From a phage, in sequence record PZ445527.1: a stretch of DNA of 64,000 bases, one strand, 5' to 3'. Shown here piece after piece: positions 1,720-53,615 of the stretch; within the stretch, counting starts at the first letter, position 1, and each line of letters begins with the position of its first letter. The notes below the pieces were generated by a model. That model made no database searches. It was not told the origin of the DNA and worked only from the letters and a program-made list of their open reading frames with translations. The position numbers were made by a program, and so were the translations under genes.

Positions 1720-1936
1720 TCATATCACAGGACTGTTGCAATTCGTCAGCAATGCGCTTAACATCGGTCTTCGTCACTTTACCGATTAACATCACTAGTA
1801 GCATAGAAAATATAACAAGGGGAACTGGAATAACAAATAATGCTACCTTAACTACATTCTTTGGTGCCCATGTATGGTATTTAGTAACTAGAACTCCCAC
1901 CACGATTAGATAAAATGCTAGAATAAACATCATCAT
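1691..1936 (-). CDS. small membrane protein
   Basis: 81 aa, two hydrophobic segments. Confidence 0.5.
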   Translation of the reverse strand: MMMFILAFYLIVVGVLVTKYHTWAPKNVVKVALFVIPVPLVIFSMLLVMLIGKVTKTDVKRIADELQQSCDMIEDILKDET

Positions 1937-2214
1937 TTTTTAATCTCCGTAATTATCTGTGCACGCATTACTTTATTAGGTAATTTTGTATTCCCAGCTA
2001 TTGCTTCAATATTATTTAGTTTTTCTTTAAGAATATCTGAGCGTCTTTGTGCTAATTCAATATCTTGCTCTTGCTCTAGTAACCGGTGGTGTAGCCCATC
2101 ATTAGTAATGAGCATACTTTCCATGTTTTTTCGTGCGTTTACAATCCCAATAACTCCACCAATCGCTACTAGCGTAGTAAGAACCAGTAACCCAATAAGA
2201 ATTTCAATCAACAT
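1933..2214 (-). CDS. hypothetical protein with N-terminal TM segment
   Basis: 93 aa; N-terminal hydrophobic helix then charged coiled-coil-like region. Confidence 0.5.
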   Translation of the reverse strand: MLIEILIGLLVLTTLVAIGGVIGIVNARKNMESMLITNDGLHHRLLEQEQDIELAQRRSDILKEKLNNIEAIAGNTKLPNKVMRAQIITEIKK

Positions 2215-2377
2215 TAAATGTCCTTACATTTTTCATTGTTTGGAACTAGTTTACACATCTCCACATTTAACTCGTGGATAGAATTGTCTAGTTCTTCTAA
2301 ACGTGTGTGAAGAAAAACTATACTATATATTAACACTCCTAAAAGGAGTGACAGCATAAAAATGGATAGTCTTTCCA

Positions 2378-2656
2378 TTATTTCTTACCTTTCAGTTGTT
2401 TAACTTCACGCTCAAAGCTAGCTGCACGGCGTTCTGCCACTGCTTGATGCTCCTTAGCAAAGCGTGCCTCTTGTTTTGCTAAGTTAAAGGCCATAGCGTT
2501 CTTGTTAAGAGAATCATACATCTTCTTCATCGCCGGAATAGACATTTTCATCAGTTGCCCCTCAAATCCTTGCATGTCGAGGAGAATTGCTAATACATTG
2601 GCCATTTCAGTCTTGGTAAGGTTAGAGGCGTCGAAGTCTTTAGTCATGTTTTCCAT
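2378..2656 (-). CDS. hypothetical protein
   Basis: ORF 2378..2674; start placed at MENMT Met 7 nt after GAGAGAGG RBS, downstream of promoter at 2689..2717. Confidence 0.55.
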   Translation of the reverse strand: MENMTKDFDASNLTKTEMANVLAILLDMQGFEGQLMKMSIPAMKKMYDSLNKNAMAFNLAKQEARFAKEHQAVAERRAASFEREVKQLKGKK

Positions 2657-2688
2657 TAGAATTTCCTCTCTCATTAATTTATGAACTT

Positions 2689-2717
2689 ATTATACAGAAT
2701 TTTGAGGTTTAAAGCAA
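2689..2717 (-). promoter_or_regulatory. sigma70-type promoter
   Basis: TTGCTT, 17 nt spacer, TATAAT, leader AAGTTCATAAATTAATGAGAGAGG. Confidence 0.6.
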
Positions 2718-2734
2718 CTGAATTTTTTAATTAC

Positions 2735-3166
2735 TTACCAATCGTTAACAACACCAGAGAACTCAGAAGCAAAAACTTTCTCAAATTTTTCTGCAATTTC
2801 AGGATGATCCTTACAGATCAACTCAATACATGCTTCTGGAGTCATTCCTTCGTCTTCAGGATCACCATAATACTTGTCCCAAAGATCGTCAGGGATGATG
2901 TGCTCTGCCAAATCTTGGAAAGAGATTAGCTGATAACGTTCTGCTTCCTCAGGGATAAGGATTTCACAAAGATCTTTATCTATATCACTACGGTAATCAG
3001 CAATTAGCAGGGCATTGCAAGCATGACACTCCCAAACCATCAAGCGTTCAGAAATAGAATTAGACTTATCCTGAATGTAGGACTGAAACAGGGTTCGAAA
3101 AGTAGCTTTAACTTGTTCAAACTTATCTGCTGCTGCAAAAACTAGAGCTTTATCAACTTTGTTCAT
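2735..3166 (-). CDS. hypothetical protein
   Basis: 143 aa ORF preceded by promoter at 3197..3225. Confidence 0.55.
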   Translation of the reverse strand: MNKVDKALVFAAADKFEQVKATFRTLFQSYIQDKSNSISERLMVWECHACNALLIADYRSDIDKDLCEILIPEEAERYQLISFQDLAEHIIPDDLWDKYYGDPEDEGMTPEACIELICKDHPEIAEKFEKVFASEFSGVVNDW

Positions 3167-3196
3167 TTTGTTTCCTTCTCATCAATTTATAAAGTA

Positions 3197-3225
3197 ATTA
3201 TACAGAAACTTAGGCATTTTAGCAA
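3197..3225 (-). promoter_or_regulatory. sigma70-type promoter
   Basis: TTGCTA, 17 nt spacer, TATAAT. Confidence 0.6.
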
Positions 3226-3333
3226 ATAAAACTTTTAATTAAAATGCCTAATCCTGTACTAATAGCAATACAAATGATTATAAGTATTGCTACTGCTTGT
3301 ATGACTCGTTTAATGATAACCTCAGCTATATAC

Positions 3334-3855
3334 TTAGACATTTAACATCCAGCTAGTTTTATCATGGGAAGTATACTTACCACTCATGATGTCTTCCAGG
3401 CGTACTGGTGATTTTGCATACTCTACACAAACGTTAATATAACGAGGGTCTCCCATTAACTCAAAGTGAGTATGCCCATGTAAGTTCTTTTTACCCCTCA
3501 GCTCCTCTGGATGTACTGGAGCATGGGAAAGCCAAAAGTTTTTATACTTAACTAGGGATTGTACATTATCTACTACTCCTACTAAGTCTTTGAAAGATAA
3601 CCCTTCTCGTTCTAAGTCGTGGTTCCCCAAAACTAATATAGTTCTAACATTGCTAAAGAGTTTTTCGAACTTTTCCAAACCATTTCTAGATACAAATGCA
3701 TCTCCTAAAATATAAAATACTGTACGCTTATCTTTCATGGATGTAATAGTATCCATAATAAATTCATCATGCTCTTCCATAGTAGAGAAGATTGGTCTGA
3801 ATTTAGTAATATTTGCATGTCCTAAATGGAGATCACTCCAAAAGCAAACTTTCAT
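3334..3855 (-). CDS. calcineurin-like metallophosphoesterase
   Basis: 173 aa; metal-ligand motifs DLHLGH, GDAF, GNHD, GHTH typical of metallophosphoesterases. Confidence 0.7.
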   Translation of the reverse strand: MKVCFWSDLHLGHANITKFRPIFSTMEEHDEFIMDTITSMKDKRTVFYILGDAFVSRNGLEKFEKLFSNVRTILVLGNHDLEREGLSFKDLVGVVDNVQSLVKYKNFWLSHAPVHPEELRGKKNLHGHTHFELMGDPRYINVCVEYAKSPVRLEDIMSGKYTSHDKTSWMLNV

Positions 3856-4718
3856 TAAAGGATCCTCTGTACACCACAGCTATTATTTTTGTCAGTGGTA
3901 AATGCTGTGATTTTGCCAGTTTCATCATTAACCTGCGCAACCGTCAACTGCCCGTTGAAAACACCGCCAGTATCAAGATAAACACGGTTTTTATAAAGAA
4001 GTGGGTAAGGTACTCCAGTATGCCCGTGAAACACGAAATCTATCCCTTTAACTTCTGGCACTTCCACCATATATTCTTCTTTAAATCCTGCATAACGCTG
4101 GAAATAGGGGTGTTCCTCAACATTTTTAGACAAGTGGAAGCCTATTTCTTGGATTACATCTCGATCCCATAAATATGGTTCAACATGGTATCCAGGAGGG
4201 TCATGTGGGTCTTCCTTAGCTGCTTCTACTTGTGCAATAAGGTTATCCCATACTGGGGTTTCAACTTCGTTACCACATTCTTTGTACATAAAAGGTACAC
4301 CACCATGAACAACACCATATTTCTTGCCACGATGTTTAACAGTTAGGAATACTGGCATTTTTTCAGCCATGTCTTCGGCAATATTTTTAATGGTATCTGC
4401 ATCTAGTTCATTCATAGCCCACATACCACCGTTATACATCCAGTTAGCCCAATCTCCTACAATCATAAACTGGTCATGATTTCCACGAACGCTACAGAAA
4501 CGTGGATTATACAGGAATTTGGCTAAAACTTGTAGGTTCTGCGTGCCTCGATCAATTAAATCTCCCACGCATACAACGCAATCTTTCTTGCCGTTATAGC
4601 CAGCTAATTGTAGTGCATCTTCTAGCAAATCGTTGCATCCATGAATATCACCAACAAAGAATAAGTTAACATCATCAGGTACTACTAGTGTTTTATGTAC
4701 ATTAAATTCTTTTTTCAT
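3855..4718 (-). CDS. serine/threonine protein phosphatase (PPP family)
   Basis: Motifs GDIHG, GDLIDRG, GNHD as in lambda-type PPP phosphatases; ATG at 4718 sits 2 nt after upstream stop. Confidence 0.8.
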   Translation of the reverse strand: MKKEFNVHKTLVVPDDVNLFFVGDIHGCNDLLEDALQLAGYNGKKDCVVCVGDLIDRGTQNLQVLAKFLYNPRFCSVRGNHDQFMIVGDWANWMYNGGMWAMNELDADTIKNIAEDMAEKMPVFLTVKHRGKKYGVVHGGVPFMYKECGNEVETPVWDNLIAQVEAAKEDPHDPPGYHVEPYLWDRDVIQEIGFHLSKNVEEHPYFQRYAGFKEEYMVEVPEVKGIDFVFHGHTGVPYPLLYKNRVYLDTGGVFNGQLTVAQVNDETGKITAFTTDKNNSCGVQRIL

Positions 4719-4720
4719 AA

Positions 4721-4966
4721 TTATTCCCAAATAACATTTAAAATAGTTGTACCATAGTTATTCGATAGTTTGAGAGTATAACCCTCTTTATTGAGGGCTT
4801 TTATAGCCTCATAACTAATTTCGTCACGATTAAGCTGTACAAAGGAACCTCCAATCTCGACAGAAGATACTATCCTCCGCTTAACCCATCTATACGTTTT
4901 CTTTCGGCTCTTAAGGAGTGCAGCTCTATTAACCCTAGCTAAATGTTTTGCTTGCTCTGCTAACAT
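4721..4966 (-). CDS. hypothetical basic protein
   Basis: 81 aa ORF downstream of promoter 4994..5022. Confidence 0.5.
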   Translation of the reverse strand: MLAEQAKHLARVNRAALLKSRKKTYRWVKRRIVSSVEIGGSFVQLNRDEISYEAIKALNKEGYTLKLSNNYGTTILNVIWE

Positions 4967-4993
4967 TTAATCCTCCTATCAATCTATATAAAT

Positions 4994-5022
4994 ATTATAC
5001 CAAAATTTTTAGCAAAAAGCAA
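4994..5022 (-). promoter_or_regulatory. sigma70-type promoter
   Basis: TTGCTT, 17 nt spacer, TATAAT. Confidence 0.55.
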
Positions 5023-5030
5023 GTAAAATA

Positions 5031-5057
5031 AAAGCCTGATCCGCTAAGATCAGGCTT
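5031..5057 (-). terminator. rho-independent terminator
   Basis: Perfect hairpin AAGCCTGATC-CGCTAA-GATCAGGCTT with T-rich tail on minus strand. Confidence 0.7.
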
Positions 5058-5063
5058 GGTTTA

Positions 5064-5360
5064 TTAATCCTCTGGATTATCATCCAGGAAATTTTTAATA
5101 GCTTCGTGCATAGTTTCCTTACGAAGCTGACGTCCAATCAAAATATGGTTAGCTTCTACTCGACCATTAGGTAAGCGATCTGCCAGAACTACTACAGGTA
5201 CTTGACGTACACCAAATTTCTGCATTAATTCTGTATTATCAGTCTCTTTATGGACTTCCAAGTTATAGTCATTGACTACTTTATCAAATACTGGCTCGAA
5301 AAGAGCACAAGGACGACACGTGGAACCTTTTAATAAATAAATAATTTTGCTCATATACAC
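5064..5360 (-). CDS. thioredoxin/glutaredoxin-like protein
   Basis: 98 aa with CRPC (CxxC) motif near N-terminus; followed by hairpin terminator. Confidence 0.55.
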   Translation of the reverse strand: MYMSKIIYLLKGSTCRPCALFEPVFDKVVNDYNLEVHKETDNTELMQKFGVRQVPVVVLADRLPNGRVEANHILIGRQLRKETMHEAIKNFLDDNPED

Positions 5361-49080: not shown

Positions 49081-49491
49081 ATGACTACTCCAACTCAGTG
49101 GACTGATGAACTGTTCGAAAAAATGTCTTCCGAATATGTTGCTCGTATGGAGCAATTCCCAGAGGATGAACGTCCGAGTGTTAGCATGGAAATTGTTAGC
49201 GAAATTGCCCAGGAAAATGGTGTAACTCCGAACGGTTTTCGTATGAAGCTGACTAAAGCAGGTTTGTATATCAAGAAAGCTGCTGGTTCTACTTCTAAAT
49301 CTAGCGCATCTACTGGAGAAAAAGCTTCCGGTGGTTCTCGTACCTCCAAAGCCCAGGCCCATGCCGACCTTCGTTCAGCATTCTCTGACGCTGGCTTAGC
49401 ACCAGATTTTCTGGATGACGCAATTATCGACAAACTGACCGGTAAAGCGGCCGCTCATCTGGCAGAAGCAATCCGAGCTATCACTAAGTAA
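49081..49491 (+). CDS. hypothetical protein
   Basis: 136 aa; Ser/Ala-rich low-complexity middle. Confidence 0.55.
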   Translation: MTTPTQWTDELFEKMSSEYVARMEQFPEDERPSVSMEIVSEIAQENGVTPNGFRMKLTKAGLYIKKAAGSTSKSSASTGEKASGGSRTSKAQAHADLRSAFSDAGLAPDFLDDAIIDKLTGKAAAHLAEAIRAITK

Positions 49492-49505
49492 TAGGGAGAT
49501 TATAC

Positions 49506-49793
49506 ATGAACAAACAAGAAATTATCTCCGCATGTGAAGCCTATAATGAATTCTATCTCCATTATGAGAAACTACGCCAAAAAGGTACTACGTATCTTCA
49601 GGGTACTATGGATTTTTCTGATAAGTACCTAAGTAAACGTTTTGCCCAGGAGCGTATCCGTCAACCAAAAGATGACGAAATTCTAGTGTTTAGTCGCACT
49701 AATGACAGCTTCCGTTTTATTCCTGTAGCGAAAGTTCGTCGTGTGACTAGCCTCCAATCAGAGTTAGATCGTGCTTCTCCAGTAGGCCGATAA
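49506..49793 (+). CDS. hypothetical protein
   Basis: 95 aa ORF followed by hairpin terminator. Confidence 0.5.
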   Translation: MNKQEIISACEAYNEFYLHYEKLRQKGTTYLQGTMDFSDKYLSKRFAQERIRQPKDDEILVFSRTNDSFRFIPVAKVRRVTSLQSELDRASPVGR

Positions 49794-49803
49794 GAAAACA
49801 ATT

Positions 49804-49828
49804 AGCCCCTATATGGGGCTTTTTGTGT
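49804..49828 (+). terminator. rho-independent terminator
   Basis: Hairpin AGCCCC...GGGGCT followed by TTTTTGTG. Confidence 0.6.
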
Positions 49829-49843
49829 ATTTGGGATATGTAA

Positions 49844-50152
49844 ATGAGCGAACAGGTAAATCAAAACTATGAGGGACACGTTGATGACCAGTCCATCATA
49901 CTTTGGGAGAAGGAGGGGGAACAAGTAAGATTAACAGTATCTGAATTTCGTGGGAATCTATACATGGGTATTCGTTACTGGCTTCTTGATATTAATGATG
50001 AGTGGTTTCCAACGAAATCTGGCTTCTCTTTTCCTTACACCCTAGAAACAACATCACAGCTTTTCTATGCGTTTACACAGATTCTTAGCGAATCTGAGGT
50101 TTTACATGAAGTACAGAAACGAGCTGAAGAACTCAAAGCCAAGAATGCCTAG
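49844..50152 (+). CDS. hypothetical protein
   Basis: 102 aa ORF. Confidence 0.5.
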   Translation: MSEQVNQNYEGHVDDQSIILWEKEGEQVRLTVSEFRGNLYMGIRYWLLDINDEWFPTKSGFSFPYTLETTSQLFYAFTQILSESEVLHEVQKRAEELKAKNA

Positions 50153-50169
50153 TTCTTGGCTTTTTCTTT
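50138..50169 (+). terminator. rho-independent terminator
   Basis: Hairpin GCCAAGAA...TTCTTGGC followed by TTTTTCTTT. Confidence 0.65.
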
Positions 50170-50179
50170 ATAAATGTAT

Positions 50180-50208
50180 TTGCTTTCAACTCAGTTTTGT
50201 TATATAAT
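50180..50208 (+). promoter_or_regulatory. sigma70 promoter upstream of ligase A
   Basis: TTGCTT, 17 nt spacer, TATAAT. Confidence 0.7.
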
Positions 50209-50239
50209 ATTTATATAAATTAATGAGAGATATAAATAA

Positions 50240-51211
50240 ATGACTAATGTAAAAGAATTTATTAAACGCTGTCAAGAAGCATATTATCAAGGCATGTCTT
50301 TAATCTCTGATGAAGAATATGATCGTCTGGTAAAACGCTTCCCGTTAGAGGAAGAGATCGGGCCTAAGGGTGATATTCCACACCTATATCGTATGTATTC
50401 TTTACAGAAAGTTTATTATAATCGTGGGGATAAACCACCATTCAATCCTTTAGGTCAGGTGGAAACCGATAAGTTAGATGGTTGTGCAATTTCTCTGCTA
50501 TATATTAACGGTGAATTTGTTCAAGCATTAACCCGTGGTAACGGTATTCTGGGGAATGATGTCACAAGCAACGTAAGATTGCTGAACATCCCTAAAAAGA
50601 TTTCCCAAAAAGTACCTACCCAAATCACTGGTGAAGTTCTAATTACAAAGGAAGTAGAAAATAAACGTAACTTTGCCTCTGGTGCTATTAACCTCAAAGA
50701 TAGCAATGATTTTGTACAACGCATTGGAGAAGGCGGTTTAATTTTTGTTGCTTATGGTATCCAATGTTCTGCTGAATCTGTAGGTATTACAGAAGCATAC
50801 TTAAAAGATATGCTTTGGCTAGAGAATGAGAACTTCTTAACAGTTGTTAATGTACGTTCCTTCTTTAAATGGATTCCAACCGACGGTAAAGTTGTTCGTA
50901 TTAATGATAATAATAAATTCTTCCGCGAAGGGTGGACTAATAAATTCCCTCGTGGAGCATTCGCTATTAAAGAGGATGAAGAAGGCGAGATTACAACTCT
51001 TACTAAAGTTGAATGGGCGACAGGAGCGTCTGGTAAAGTAACTCCAGTTGGTTATTTCGAACCGGTAATTATTGATGATGCAGTTATTACAAAAGCCACC
51101 CTTAATAATGTAGATTATATTAAATCACTAGATTTAGAGATCGGATGTCAGATTAGAGTAGTACGTGCAGGCGGTGTGATACCAAAGATTGTGGAAAGAG
51201 TTTATGAATAG
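50240..51211 (+). CDS. ligA: NAD-dependent DNA ligase, N-terminal part (adenylation and OB domains)
   Basis: 323 aa; adenylation motif KLDGCAISL; ends where bacterial LigA continues into its Zn finger. Confidence 0.85.
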   Translation: MTNVKEFIKRCQEAYYQGMSLISDEEYDRLVKRFPLEEEIGPKGDIPHLYRMYSLQKVYYNRGDKPPFNPLGQVETDKLDGCAISLLYINGEFVQALTRGNGILGNDVTSNVRLLNIPKKISQKVPTQITGEVLITKEVENKRNFASGAINLKDSNDFVQRIGEGGLIFVAYGIQCSAESVGITEAYLKDMLWLENENFLTVVNVRSFFKWIPTDGKVVRINDNNKFFREGWTNKFPRGAFAIKEDEEGEITTLTKVEWATGASGKVTPVGYFEPVIIDDAVITKATLNNVDYIKSLDLEIGCQIRVVRAGGVIPKIVERVYE

Positions 51212-51845
51212 CGGAGTTTATCCACTGATAGTAAAAGGATATAAATATGTTGGCTATTCCAGAAATATTGATAGAAGGTTTAAGGAGCATACATATACTT
51301 ATGTTACTAATCTAGGTCATATAGACTCCCATATCCCGAGAAACTTACTAGGTGTACAGGTACAGAAGTCAGATATAAGCATAGAAATTCTAGAGTATAT
51401 TTCTCCGGAAGAGAGTACTGATGTATTTTTAAGGGCAGAAGATTTGTGGATACAGAGGATTTGTCCAGAGCTAAATACAAACGTTCCTTTATCTAACTTA
51501 GTCGAAGCAGTAGAATATTGTATTTCAAACCCATCTGAAACGTATAAATCAGCGGCCTCAAAGTTCAACATTACACCTAAAATGTTAGAGCATGTTGCCT
51601 CTGGAGGATATAACTCCTTAGGATGCATTTTATCAAGAAGTACTTTAGAACTATTTCGTAGTAAGAAATATAAAGAACTAATATTAGTACACGAAAATGG
51701 GGCTAGGTTTGTAGCGACGTCTTACCTTGAATTACATAGATTATCTGGGCTAGATAGGCATAGAATATCTGACCTACATAAAGGCAAGTACCCCACCTTT
51801 AAAGGGTGGACCCTTTTAACCCCATCTACCATATCGGAATTATAA
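51204..51845 (+). CDS. GIY-YIG homing endonuclease
   Basis: ORF 51189..51845; GVYPLIVKGYKYVGYSRNIDRRFKEH GIY-YIG motif; start at MNSG Met overlapping ligA end. Confidence 0.75.
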   Translation: MNSGVYPLIVKGYKYVGYSRNIDRRFKEHTYTYVTNLGHIDSHIPRNLLGVQVQKSDISIEILEYISPEESTDVFLRAEDLWIQRICPELNTNVPLSNLVEAVEYCISNPSETYKSAASKFNITPKMLEHVASGGYNSLGCILSRSTLELFRSKKYKELILVHENGARFVATSYLELHRLSGLDRHRISDLHKGKYPTFKGWTLLTPSTISEL

Positions 51846-51946
51846 AGTGGTTATTGACATTTTCGCCGCTTAGGTATATACTATTATCATTCAGTTGAGG
51901 GATAGAAAGTTATGGCGAGGGTAAGCAAAGTTAATTAAAATTGTAG

Positions 51947-51975
51947 TTGCTAAATGCTTAAATACTTGCTATAAT
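51947..51975 (+). promoter_or_regulatory. sigma70 promoter upstream of ligase B
   Basis: TTGCTA, 17 nt spacer, TATAAT, leader ATTTATATAAATTGATAAGGAAG. Confidence 0.7.
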
Positions 51976-52002
51976 ATTTATATAAATTGATAAGGAAGAA
52001 AT

Positions 52003-52773
52003 TTGATGAAAATCGAAATTCCAACACAATGTCCCTCTTGTGGTTCTAAGCTAGATCTTGTCAACGGACAATTATTCTGTCGTAATAAGTCCAACTGTCC
52101 AGCGCAATCAAGTAAGTTAATTGAGAACTTCTGTACAAAAATGAAGTTAAAGGGCTTTGGCCCAAAAACTATTGAGAAGCTGGAGCTGACGAAGATTTCA
52201 GAACTATTTTACCTAACCGAAGAAGATTTGGTTAGAGCCGTGGGTAGCAAGGTTGCCGCTAAGTTAATTAGCGAATTAAATACTAAAGTTCGCGGAGACA
52301 TTGACTTTGGTTCAGTTCTCGGTTCTTTAGGAATCCCTCTGATTGGAGAGGTTGCAGCAAAGAAATTATCCCAAAATTGCACTAGCTTCCACGATGTGAA
52401 GGCTGACGGCAAGGCTGGAGAAAACTATAAAGCCTGGCTAAATTCCCCACAAGGCAAGGATGTAATCGAATTACCGTGGAAATTCTCAAAGGGTGTTAAA
52501 GCTGACATCATTACTGATGGTCTAGTAGCTCAACCAAATGGAATCGCGGTATGTATTACCGGATCTTTGCAAGATTTTGCAAATAGAACGGATGCAACAA
52601 ACTATTTAGAAAGTCTAGGGTATACGGTTAAGAAATCCGTTACTAAAGACGTCAAATACCTAATCTGTGAGGATGAATCAAAACGTTCTTCCTCATCTTA
52701 TAAGAAAGCCGAAACGAATGGGATAGAAATCCTGTCGATTAAAGAACTATTGGAGAAAAATAATAATGTCTAA
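52003..52773 (+). CDS. ligB: NAD-dependent DNA ligase, C-terminal part (Zn finger, HhH, BRCT)
   Basis: 256 aa; begins with Zn-finger Cys cluster CPSCGS...C...C corresponding to the LigA Zn finger. Confidence 0.85.
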   Translation: MMKIEIPTQCPSCGSKLDLVNGQLFCRNKSNCPAQSSKLIENFCTKMKLKGFGPKTIEKLELTKISELFYLTEEDLVRAVGSKVAAKLISELNTKVRGDIDFGSVLGSLGIPLIGEVAAKKLSQNCTSFHDVKADGKAGENYKAWLNSPQGKDVIELPWKFSKGVKADIITDGLVAQPNGIAVCITGSLQDFANRTDATNYLESLGYTVKKSVTKDVKYLICEDESKRSSSSYKKAETNGIEILSIKELLEKNNNV

Positions 52774-53533
52774 ACTGAACTGGAACGTAGAAGGTGTAAC
52801 CGAGTCTCTGAAAGCAAAAGCCACTGCTCTGGGTGTTGCTGTAATCTCTCAAGAACAAGTAGCTGCTATCGCTGCTGAACTGGCCGCTGAAACTGGTAAA
52901 GATGTTACCGCTCGCTCTGTTGGCTCTAAACTGCGTAAAGAAGGTTTTGAAGTACAAAAAGCTAACGAAGTACAGAAATCCCCGTGGACTCCTGAGCAGG
53001 AAGCTGAACTGGTTGATTTCCTGAACGCTCATGCTGGTCAGTATACCTATGCTGAAATCGCTGCTGCTGTAGCTGGTGGTCAGTTCGGTGCTAAGCAGGT
53101 ACAGGGTAAGATTCTGAGTCTGGAAATGACCGCTTCTGTTAAACCAACCGAAAAAGCTGCTGCTGTTCGTTCCTTCACTCCGGATGAAGAAACTGATTTT
53201 GTTAATCAGGTTGTTGCTGGTGCTACTATTGAAGCTATCGCTGCTCACTTCGGTCGTAATATCAAGCAGATCCGTGGTAAAGCTCTGAGCCTGCTTCGTG
53301 AAGGTCGTATCGCTGCTATGCCGGTACAGGAAACCTCAAGTGCTAAAACTCGTGAAGATCTGTTAGAAGGTCTGGATCTGGTTAACATGACTGTTGCTGA
53401 GATCGCTGAGAAAACTGGTAAGTCTGAGCGTGGTGTTAAATCTATGCTGTCTCGTCGTGGTCTGGTTGCTAAGGACTATGATGGTGCCGCTAAGCGTGCT
53501 AAACTGGATGCAAAAGCTGCGGCTGCTGAATAA
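52766..53533 (+). CDS. abundant DNA-binding protein (T5 D5-like), tentative
   Basis: 255 aa, Ala-rich; three internal repeats of a short HTH-like motif; strongly biased codon use. Confidence 0.55.
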   Translation: MSKLNWNVEGVTESLKAKATALGVAVISQEQVAAIAAELAAETGKDVTARSVGSKLRKEGFEVQKANEVQKSPWTPEQEAELVDFLNAHAGQYTYAEIAAAVAGGQFGAKQVQGKILSLEMTASVKPTEKAAAVRSFTPDEETDFVNQVVAGATIEAIAAHFGRNIKQIRGKALSLLREGRIAAMPVQETSSAKTREDLLEGLDLVNMTVAEIAEKTGKSERGVKSMLSRRGLVAKDYDGAAKRAKLDAKAAAAE

Positions 53534-53615
53534 TCTGGTAAATTAAACCTAAGGGGTGGGGGCTATGCCTCTACCCCTTTTTGCATTTAGAAGGCACGAA
53601 AGCGTGCAAAGGAGA

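Follow-up and report, generated by a model that had tools for sequence, protein, structure and literature searches.

Organization of the ligA-ligB locus

We analysed a stretch of 64,000 nucleotides (nt) of phage DNA (sequence record PZ445527.1), called here the window, and in it the locus between positions 50,240 and 52,773, where the two genes of a NAD-dependent DNA ligase, ligA and ligB, flank a gene for a predicted GIY-YIG endonuclease. An earlier note on this DNA had described this arrangement and proposed that insertion of the endonuclease gene had created a two-subunit ligase. The gene order ligA, GIY-YIG gene, ligB was confirmed from the list of open reading frames (ORFs) and from the raw sequence. 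Judging by nucleotide identity, the window comes from a T5-like phage of the genus Tequintavirus: it is about 96% identical to T5 across the region (95.7% outside the insert) and likewise 95-96% identical to hundreds of Tequintavirus genomes. The neighbours are also those of T5, with a PC4-like gene upstream and D5 and a DnaB-like helicase gene downstream; the GIY-YIG gene itself is absent from T5. Coordinates are collected in Table 1.

Table 1. Features of the ligase locus in the window, and accessory genes at the same locus in related phages
Feature	Record	Position	Strand	Basis or remark
Terminator-like hairpin	window	50135..50163	+	terminator scan; closes the upstream transcription unit
ligA	window	50240..51211	+	Pfam PF01653 and PF03120; T5 LigA 97% identical; PDB 9hu3 chain A
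Diverged 3' tract of ligA	window	51047..51211	+	adjoins the endonuclease gene; differences from T5 in the text
Predicted GIY-YIG endonuclease gene, 213 amino acids	window	51204..51845	+	Pfam, homologues P0001-P0003, structure model, fold search
Last 12 codons and stop of the endonuclease ORF	window	51810..51845	+	alignment with T5, Spc35 and others; right-hand insertion junction
Promoter-like site, equivalent of T5 P-K28b	window	51854..51882	+	TTGACA-17-TATACT, 11/12
Promoter-like site with extended -10, equivalent of T5 P-K28a	window	51947..51975	+	TTGCTA-17-TGcTATAAT (TGnTATAAT), 10/12
ligB	window	ATG 52006..52773	+	Pfam; alignment with orthologues; PDB 9hu3 chain B
Small genes in the ligA-ligB gap	L007 (Vibrio phage Cody)	2469-3361		unrelated to the endonuclease
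Small genes in the ligA-ligB gap	L008 (Vibrio phage Morian)	2469-3687		unrelated to the endonuclease
Small genes in the ligA-ligB gap	L009 (Vibrio phage D258)	2457-2917		unrelated to the endonuclease
Extra ORF before ligA	L002 (RUS_R2)	1634-1834
Extra ORF before ligA	L004 (Spc35)	1139-1327
Extra ORF before ligA	L005 (MET_P1_179_112)	1140-1412
Extra ORF before ligA	L006 (Stokescottia)	1141-1413

Two genes for the two subunits of a ligase

The LigA protein of 323 amino acids (aa) combines a NAD-ligase adenylation domain (PF01653, Pfam expect value (E) 1.3e-23) with an OB domain (PF03120, E 1.9e-21) that ends at residue 321 of 323, so that ligA does end after the OB fold, as the earlier note had it. 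Its KxDG motif (K78-L-D-G) is invariant across the family alignment. LigB opens with a Zn finger whose cysteines C9, C12, C25 and C31 are invariant and which is followed by HhH and BRCT domains; Pfam recognizes the BRCT domain (E 6e-8), the HhH_2 and HHH_5 matches staying under their cut-offs. That ligB begins at the Zn-finger cysteine cluster holds, but its proposed first position does not: while the ORF opens at TTG 52003, T5 ligB and five relatives align from ATG 52006 (MKIEIPTQCPSCG...), and an AAGGAAG Shine-Dalgarno sequence lies 7 nt before this ATG. On the alignment, ATG 52006, not TTG 52003, is the real start of ligB.

The window proteins are 97-98% identical to LigA and LigB of T5 and 55-57% identical to those of Providencia phage PR1. 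A PDB search retrieved entries 9hu3 and 9i5i, each holding a 339-aa chain named 'DNA ligase (NAD+)' and a 248-aa chain named 'DNA ligase subunit B'; for 9hu3 the E-values are 6.5e-103 with chain A (LigA) and 1.7e-81 with chain B (LigB). Over the aligned stretches these chains match the LigA and LigB sequences of PR1, and a literature search found no publication describing the two entries. By their domains, ligA and ligB appear to encode a two-gene, two-subunit NAD-dependent ligase split exactly at the OB/Zn-finger boundary, and this part of the earlier proposal is upheld. The association of LigA with LigB in the window phage is suggested by their domain content together with the two-chain entries of the PR1 orthologue.

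The GIY-YIG gene and its insertion

The ORF between the two ligase genes is best read from an ATG whose position makes the start of the gene overlap the ligA stop by 8 nt (ATGAATAG; T-ATG-AAT-AG). Its assignment to the GIY-YIG group, already made in the earlier note, is borne out by Pfam, homologues, fold and catalytic residues. The score of the window protein against Pfam PF01541 is exactly the gathering cut-off, 22.6 bits, and its close homologues P0002 and P0003 reach 31-33 bits. An AlphaFold model (predicted local distance difference test, pLDDT, 86) finds its best Foldseek matches in the I-TevI catalytic domain (1mk0/1ln0; probability 1.00; template modelling (TM) score 0.68-0.70), the sequence identity with I-TevI over this structural superposition being only about 22%. 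None of the catalytic residues Y6, Y15, R25, H29, E79 and N91 is missing; G4, Y6, Y15, G17, R25, H29 and E79 are invariant in one homologue alignment, and N91 in two others. The C-terminal half, for which Pfam gives no direct match, is modelled as helical with a helix-turn-helix (HTH) and has a weak structural match to the DNA-binding region of I-HmuI (E 0.085). In the distant relatives P0005-P0007, NUMOD-like domains close with the KGW motif that is also found in the window protein. Sequence and model together point to a free-standing GIY-YIG homing endonuclease of the Seg/I-TevI type, with predicted activity.

One residue is peculiar to the window copy. Codon 7 (51222-51224, in GVYPLIV) encodes Pro, where RUS_R2, SP3, P0002 and P0003 have Leu, and the position belongs to the first beta strand of the GIY-YIG fold. 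Pro7 probably explains why this copy scores at the Pfam cut-off.

Compared with T5, the window has 598 extra nt (51212-51809) that replace 6 nt and are all ORF, and the ligA-ligB gap measures 794 nt instead of 202 nt. The insert has a GC content of 33-38%, like its flanks, so that base composition says nothing on a foreign origin. From 51810 on the gap is identical to that of T5, and the last 12 codons with the stop (36 nt) are common to endonuclease-free tequintaviruses. P0002 stops 4 residues past the conserved KGW, whereas the window ORF continues for 11 (TLLTPSTISEL); this tail lies beyond the C-terminus of the family and is non-conserved, so that it looks like read-through into resident DNA. 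The converse idea, that the empty T5 gap is a 3' remnant of an endonuclease gene, was considered and set aside as ambiguous: no clear deletion scar is seen, and the shared 36 nt correspond to the non-conserved tail only.

An endonuclease family of the ligA-ligB gap

Of 444 matching records only 3 have the insert, one of RUS_R2 and two of the SP3 genome, which makes two isolates besides the window; tblastn with the endonuclease likewise matched only RUS_R2 and SP3, which puts the gene in less than 1% of tequintaviruses. An exhaustive phmmer search of 1.84 billion representative proteins gave eight matches, two of them close: P0002 (53% identity) and P0003 (35-36%). The genes for both lie in the ligA-ligB gap of other T5-like contigs (L016, L017). 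L016 is Sugarlandvirus-like, with LigA 89% and LigB 95% identical to those of GlastoCabaret, and the DNA of L017 is 96% identical to Enterobacter phage KKP_3711. In both contigs the start of the endonuclease gene overlaps or abuts the ligA stop, and in L017 the insert is exactly the endonuclease ORF, set between the ligA TAA and the resident CCCC... sequence. Three pairs of occupied and empty sites are thus at hand: the window and T5, L016 and GlastoCabaret, L017 and KKP_3711. In five carriers, the window, RUS_R2, SP3, L016 and L017, the ORF is uninterrupted and every catalytic residue is kept.

Other collections added little to this picture. No PHROGs family matches the window endonuclease, a word-indexed search of 5.8 billion proteins returned the SP3 cluster only, and a scan of IMG/VR gave SP3 only, plus unrelated weak GIY-YIG matches. 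Nothing was found in a scan of JGI metagenomes, and an exact-sequence look-up of the window endonuclease returned no record. In GenBank the gene is a 'hypothetical protein' in one isolate and, erroneously, 'ligase subunit A' in another. The product names of SP3 (L003, MG387042) are offset by one gene over 1820-5125, and the wrong name has been carried into UniRef for the endonuclease cluster.

Among the carriers, the identity of the endonuclease drops alongside that of the ligase (98/89/53/35% against 98/97/71/68%). The window and L016 share 71% in LigA, 53% in the endonuclease and 72% in LigB; the values are 68, 35 and 69% for the window and L017, and 65, 32 and 62% for L016 and L017. All the endonuclease-carrying lineages found have enterobacterial hosts: Tequintavirus, the Sugarlandvirus-like lineage and a member of the Markadamsvirinae. 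The family was previously unnamed, and so far it occurs only in the ligA-ligB gap of three diverged T5-like lineages.

One-sided divergence of the ligA 3' end

In all three pairs of a carrier with an endonuclease-free relative, the last 165-200 nt or so of ligA, which adjoin the endonuclease gene, are sharply diverged, for the most part at silent sites, while the downstream flank is not. Between the window and T5, 38 of the last 165 nt of ligA differ, against 38 of the other 807 (Fisher p=3e-12), and the downstream gap and ligB are 93-100% identical. The corresponding counts are 54/165 and 142/798 for L016 and GlastoCabaret (p=4.5e-5; downstream 85-100% identical) and 46/165 and 28/801 for L017 and KKP_3711 (p=6e-20; downstream 95-100% identical). 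Across ligA as a whole, 58 of the 67 codons changed between the window and T5 are synonymous. The 3' tract of the window is 100% identical to that of RUS_R2, 92% to SP3, 87-89% to Spc35 and at most 80% to all other database phages. The recoded tracts of the different carrier lineages do not resemble each other, which indicates that they have not simply been exchanged among these lineages.

By analogy, such a one-sided tract is the signature expected of 'intronless homing' of the Seg type, and positions 51047..51211 may represent the homing target or a co-conversion zone. What is new here is the specificity of the endonuclease family for the ligA-ligB site and the one-sided ligA tract in three lineages.

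The endonuclease-free phage Spc35 (L004) has an intermediate tract, its last 165 nt of ligA being 89% identical to the window and 87% to T5. Either a partial co-conversion or an endonuclease present in the past could have left such a tract.

Age and spread of the ligase split

The two-subunit ligase is an already known hallmark of T5-like phages and not a discovery of this analysis. The ligA/ligB split has been annotated in T5 since 2004-5 (T5.116/T5.117), is credited in a passage of PMC1684257 to the T5 genome paper (Wang et al. 2005), and is mentioned routinely for T5-like phages (PMC4319617; PMC3632103). In T5 the gap holds only the promoters P-K28b and P-K28a, and about 440 close relatives share both the split and the 202-nt promoter-bearing gap, without an endonuclease gene.

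To see how far the split extends, an artificial LigA+LigB fusion was used as tblastn query against 50,697 phage records. It matched as two pieces, at 47-98% identity, in every sampled member of the Demerecviridae (Tequintavirus, Sugarlandvirus, Priunavirus and the Vibrio Ermolyevavirinae), the three more distant groups carrying the split at 47-73% identity; a single piece was found only in unrelated phages, at 29% identity or less. In protein alignments the break point is identical in six genera or lineages: LigA ends in ...GG(V/I)IPKIVE(R/K)V.. and LigB opens with MKIxIPTxCPxCG. The Vibrio and Providencia members have the split ligase and lack the endonuclease. When a query spanning the junction was searched against 5.8 billion proteins for an unsplit relative, each of the best 120 matches covered at most 53% of it and none included both halves.

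The same break point thus occurs in all sampled Demerecviridae, mostly without endonuclease, and for this reason the fission of the ligase is best read, from these comparisons, as an ancestral, family-level character. The earlier note had asked for T5 and its relatives to be compared, and the split is indeed found there at the same residues; it is the conserved arrangement of the group, an outcome that the note itself had named as speaking against its view, and the proposal that this endonuclease insertion had created it is contradicted by T5, by its roughly 440 relatives and by the distant Demerecviridae, which are all split without the endonuclease.

The gap of Vibrio phages holds one to three unrelated small genes, among them one for a phrog_768 'DprA-like' protein (Table 1), so that the ligA-ligB gap seems to act as a general landing site for accessory genes. 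These genes were also considered as decayed endonuclease genes and rejected, with hhalign probabilities of at most 0.1% and no Pfam matches to GIY-YIG or HNH.

Transcription and translation across the locus

The earlier note had postulated one independent sigma70 promoter for ligB. A promoter region is indeed present, with two sigma-70 promoter-like sites rather than one, in a sequence identical to the T5 stretch annotated as P-K28b and P-K28a. The dual-promoter gap is conserved in several genera, and a P-K28b-like site in Sugarlandvirus and in L017/KKP_3711. The site at 51947-51975 is a predicted promoter for ligB, D5 and the helicase gene. The 3' end of ligB overlaps the start of D5 (ATG 52766) by 8 nt (52766-52773), as in T5; this overlap suggests that ligB, D5 and the helicase gene form a single, tightly coupled transcription unit, served by both promoters of the gap. 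Upstream, T5 has an annotated promoter 6 nt before ligA, whose counterpart in the window is the stretch between the terminator-like hairpin and ligA, 100% identical to T5.

A promoter and terminator scan found neither element between ligA and the endonuclease gene, which leads us to propose that the two are co-transcribed and translationally coupled. The RNA fold of 51150-51250, at their junction, is no better than that of shuffled sequences (z=+1.5), and a hairpin hiding the ribosome-binding site of the endonuclease gene, as in mobE of Aeh1, was dropped on this ground.

Other variation around the locus

RUS_R2, Spc35, MET_P1_179_112 and Stokescottia have an extra ORF of 62-90 aa between the promoter and ligA, which abuts the ligA start or overlaps it by 8 nt (Table 1); the window and T5 are without it. 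On the other side of the locus, an HNH endonuclease gene lies between D5 and the DnaB-like helicase gene in RUS_R2 (L002, 5192-5773) and in the metagenomic phage L017 (7350-7859), a site where the window has only a short spacer (53534-53555). This makes the spacer a second position in the replication module where the presence of an endonuclease gene varies among phages. Further upstream, at 49400-49700, the D3/T5.114-like genes that precede the PC4-like gene are only 48-85% identical to T5, between flanks of 98-100%; this stretch is mosaic and has no connection with the ligase locus. At 49781-49824, a weak match of Rfam to SpF51, a small RNA (sRNA) of Streptococcus (28.7 bits for a gathering score of 50, E=0.025), lies near the position of an annotated rho-independent terminator of T5 and is probably a chance hairpin match.

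A probable homing gene settled in an existing gap

The analysis establishes which genes the locus contains, where the domains are bounded, how old and ubiquitous the split is, that the endonuclease is rare and specific to this site, and that the divergence of ligA is one-sided. We suppose, with a probability of roughly 70%, that the locus consists of the known two-subunit ligase of the family and of a selfish GIY-YIG homing gene that settled later in the existing gap. LigA, with its Ia, nucleotidyltransferase (NTase) and OB domains, would be adenylated by NAD+ on K78 and seal nicks. LigB, with its Zn finger, HhH and BRCT domains, would be expressed from strong early promoters of its own, with its gene heading the ligB-D5-helicase unit, bind LigA non-covalently and supply the DNA-encircling and DNA-binding domains in trans. 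In bacterial LigA these domains lie within one polypeptide.

The endonuclease gene would have entered a locus that was already split, immediately behind the ligA stop codon, becoming translationally coupled to ligA. In a mixed infection, its product would cut endonuclease-free relatives within or near the conserved last 200 nt or so of ligA, and recombinational repair off the carrier genome would copy the endonuclease gene together with the adjoining ligA 3' tract, an 'intronless homing' or localized marker exclusion. We propose that the ligA 3' end of the carrier itself is protected because it is silently recoded. For the activity of the endonuclease, the position of its target and homing itself, we infer from sequence.

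Several points weigh against this scenario. The diverged ligA tract could simply be a recombination boundary with an unsampled donor. The window copy may be impaired, in view of Pro7 and of its Pfam score at the cut-off. Finally, endonuclease and ligase identities that fall in step also fit a long vertical residence of the gene in the gap, which would allow an older role of the endonuclease in the fission of the ligase.

The first two points come together in the idea that the GIY-YIG gene has ceased to home and persists as a decaying or domesticated passenger, the ligA tract being a mosaic recombination joint of a kind common in T5-like phages. Mosaicism elsewhere in these genomes, as at 49400-49700, agrees with it, as does the lack of further copies besides SP3 in JGI metagenomes and IMG/VR. 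We nevertheless hold it to be unlikely: five carriers have kept both ORF and catalytic residues, and random mosaic joints would hardly produce a one-sided tract at one and the same position in three independent pairs.

The third point leads back to the insertion of a GIY-YIG gene into an intact ligase gene, which would have made the split either recently or in a common ancestor, with later near-universal loss of the endonuclease. Members of one endonuclease family occupy the fission point in three lineages, with a divergence that tracks the ligase, and in the carrier alleles it is the 5' end of the endonuclease gene that supplies ligA with its stop codon (ATGAATAG/ATGAATAA). Moreover, the T5 gap opens with TAA-TACA-TAACCCTTT, which resembles the endonuclease stop and downstream sequence of L016 (TAACCCTTT) and L017 (TAACCCCC) and could be a deletion scar, though the TAACCC resemblance spans just 6-9 nt. 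Precedents exist in mobE of Aeh1 nrdA and mobA of T4 gene 39/60 (PMC2988022, PMC3045599). A recent origin is nevertheless excluded by a split that is family-wide at an identical position, with the endonuclease in so few tequintaviruses. For an ancient one, the 'before' state is missing, no unsplit relative appearing among the best 120 matches; the carriers found are enterobacterial-host members and not the whole family, the Vibrio and Providencia members being split without any endonuclease and with unrelated genes in their gaps, and the dual promoter is conserved in the gap of several genera. Altogether we consider an insertion-made split about as doubtful as a mere passenger. Its specific ancestral version, in which the endonuclease has been at the fission point since before Tequintavirus, the Sugarlandvirus-like and the KKP_3711-like lineages separated, an ancestor of it caused the fission of the demerecvirus ligase, and most lineages later lost it and kept just the gap with its promoters, seems to us slightly less probable again; endonuclease-mediated fission in an ancestor is thus a minority possibility.

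Very improbable, finally, is a joining of the ligase halves after transcription or translation, by a group I intron, a split intein or ribosomal bypass: mobile introns, and the fractured genes with split inteins described in PMC2677866, typically do have an endonuclease gene between two gene halves, but the scan of 49500-53500 against Rfam (E<=1) found no group I intron, its sole match being the chance sRNA below gathering score; the extra DNA relative to T5 is all ORF and leaves no room for an intron core; the ligA/endonuclease junction has no stable RNA structure; ligA ends with its own stop 2 residues past the OB domain and 8 residues of LigB precede its first Zn-finger Cys, with no room for an intein and no extra residues at the junction in comparison with the PDB chains or with orthologues from endonuclease-free phages; ligB comes with promoters, a Shine-Dalgarno sequence and an ATG of its own; neither 202 nt nor 794 nt is a multiple of 3; and the PDB entries hold the PR1 proteins as two distinct chains, of 339 and 248 aa. 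The earlier note was therefore right that the locus is not an intron.

The modest new value of the locus lies in the endonuclease, an unnamed family restricted to one gap, with a clean one-sided recoding of ligA at each occurrence. In T5-like phages it provides a small, naturally occurring model for intronless homing and marker exclusion. These phages see wide use in phage therapy and in biocontrol cocktails, and mixed infections take place there. The endonuclease is also a concrete route to ask whether the endonuclease caused the ancient fission of the ligase or merely colonised the gap. If it did cause it, the T5 ligase would be the oldest and most widespread 'genes-in-pieces' enzyme made by a homing endonuclease, with the culprit still identifiable.

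Comparison with known systems

The nearest relatives of the window locus are LigA/LigB of T5 and the PR1 pair, which are encoded by orthologous genes with an identical OB/Zn-finger break, the same promoter-bearing gap and the same neighbourhood, and which differ in lacking the 598-nt GIY-YIG insert and the recoded ligA 3' end.

For the endonuclease, the best comparison is with the T4 Seg proteins (SegF, SegG) and I-TevI. SegF and SegG cleave within the adjacent gene, away from where their own genes are inserted. The window protein shares with this group the I-TevI-like catalytic domain and may also have a C-terminal HTH, as modelled; with the Seg genes it has in common an intergenic site between conserved DNA-metabolism genes, a sporadic presence in close relatives and one-sided replacement of the flank. 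The window family differs in its absence of any PHROG relationship and in its restriction to the ligA-ligB gap, and it is known here from sequence and model. The general biology of the Seg-type endonucleases has been reviewed (PMC2988022).

The layout of the locus echoes that of nrdA-a/mobE/nrdA-b in Aeh1, 39/mobA/60 in T4 and 43A/seg43(25)/43B in phage 25, where the halves of an essential DNA-metabolism enzyme likewise flank an endonuclease gene. Unlike in these genes-in-pieces systems, the ligase split exists without endonuclease in hundreds of relatives and across the family, and it is placed at a domain linker and not inside the active site. Aeh1 NrdA has novel assembly 'tails' (PMC3045599), which LigA and LigB do not have. 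The fractured genes with split inteins (Dassa et al. 2009, PMC2677866) show the same order of a first half, a free-standing endonuclease gene and a second half; they carry intein halves, whereas LigA and LigB of the window have none and the PR1 chains are separate. The closest parallel to the window locus is gene 43 of Aeromonas phage 25, which may have been split before the seg gene invaded it (PMC2988022).

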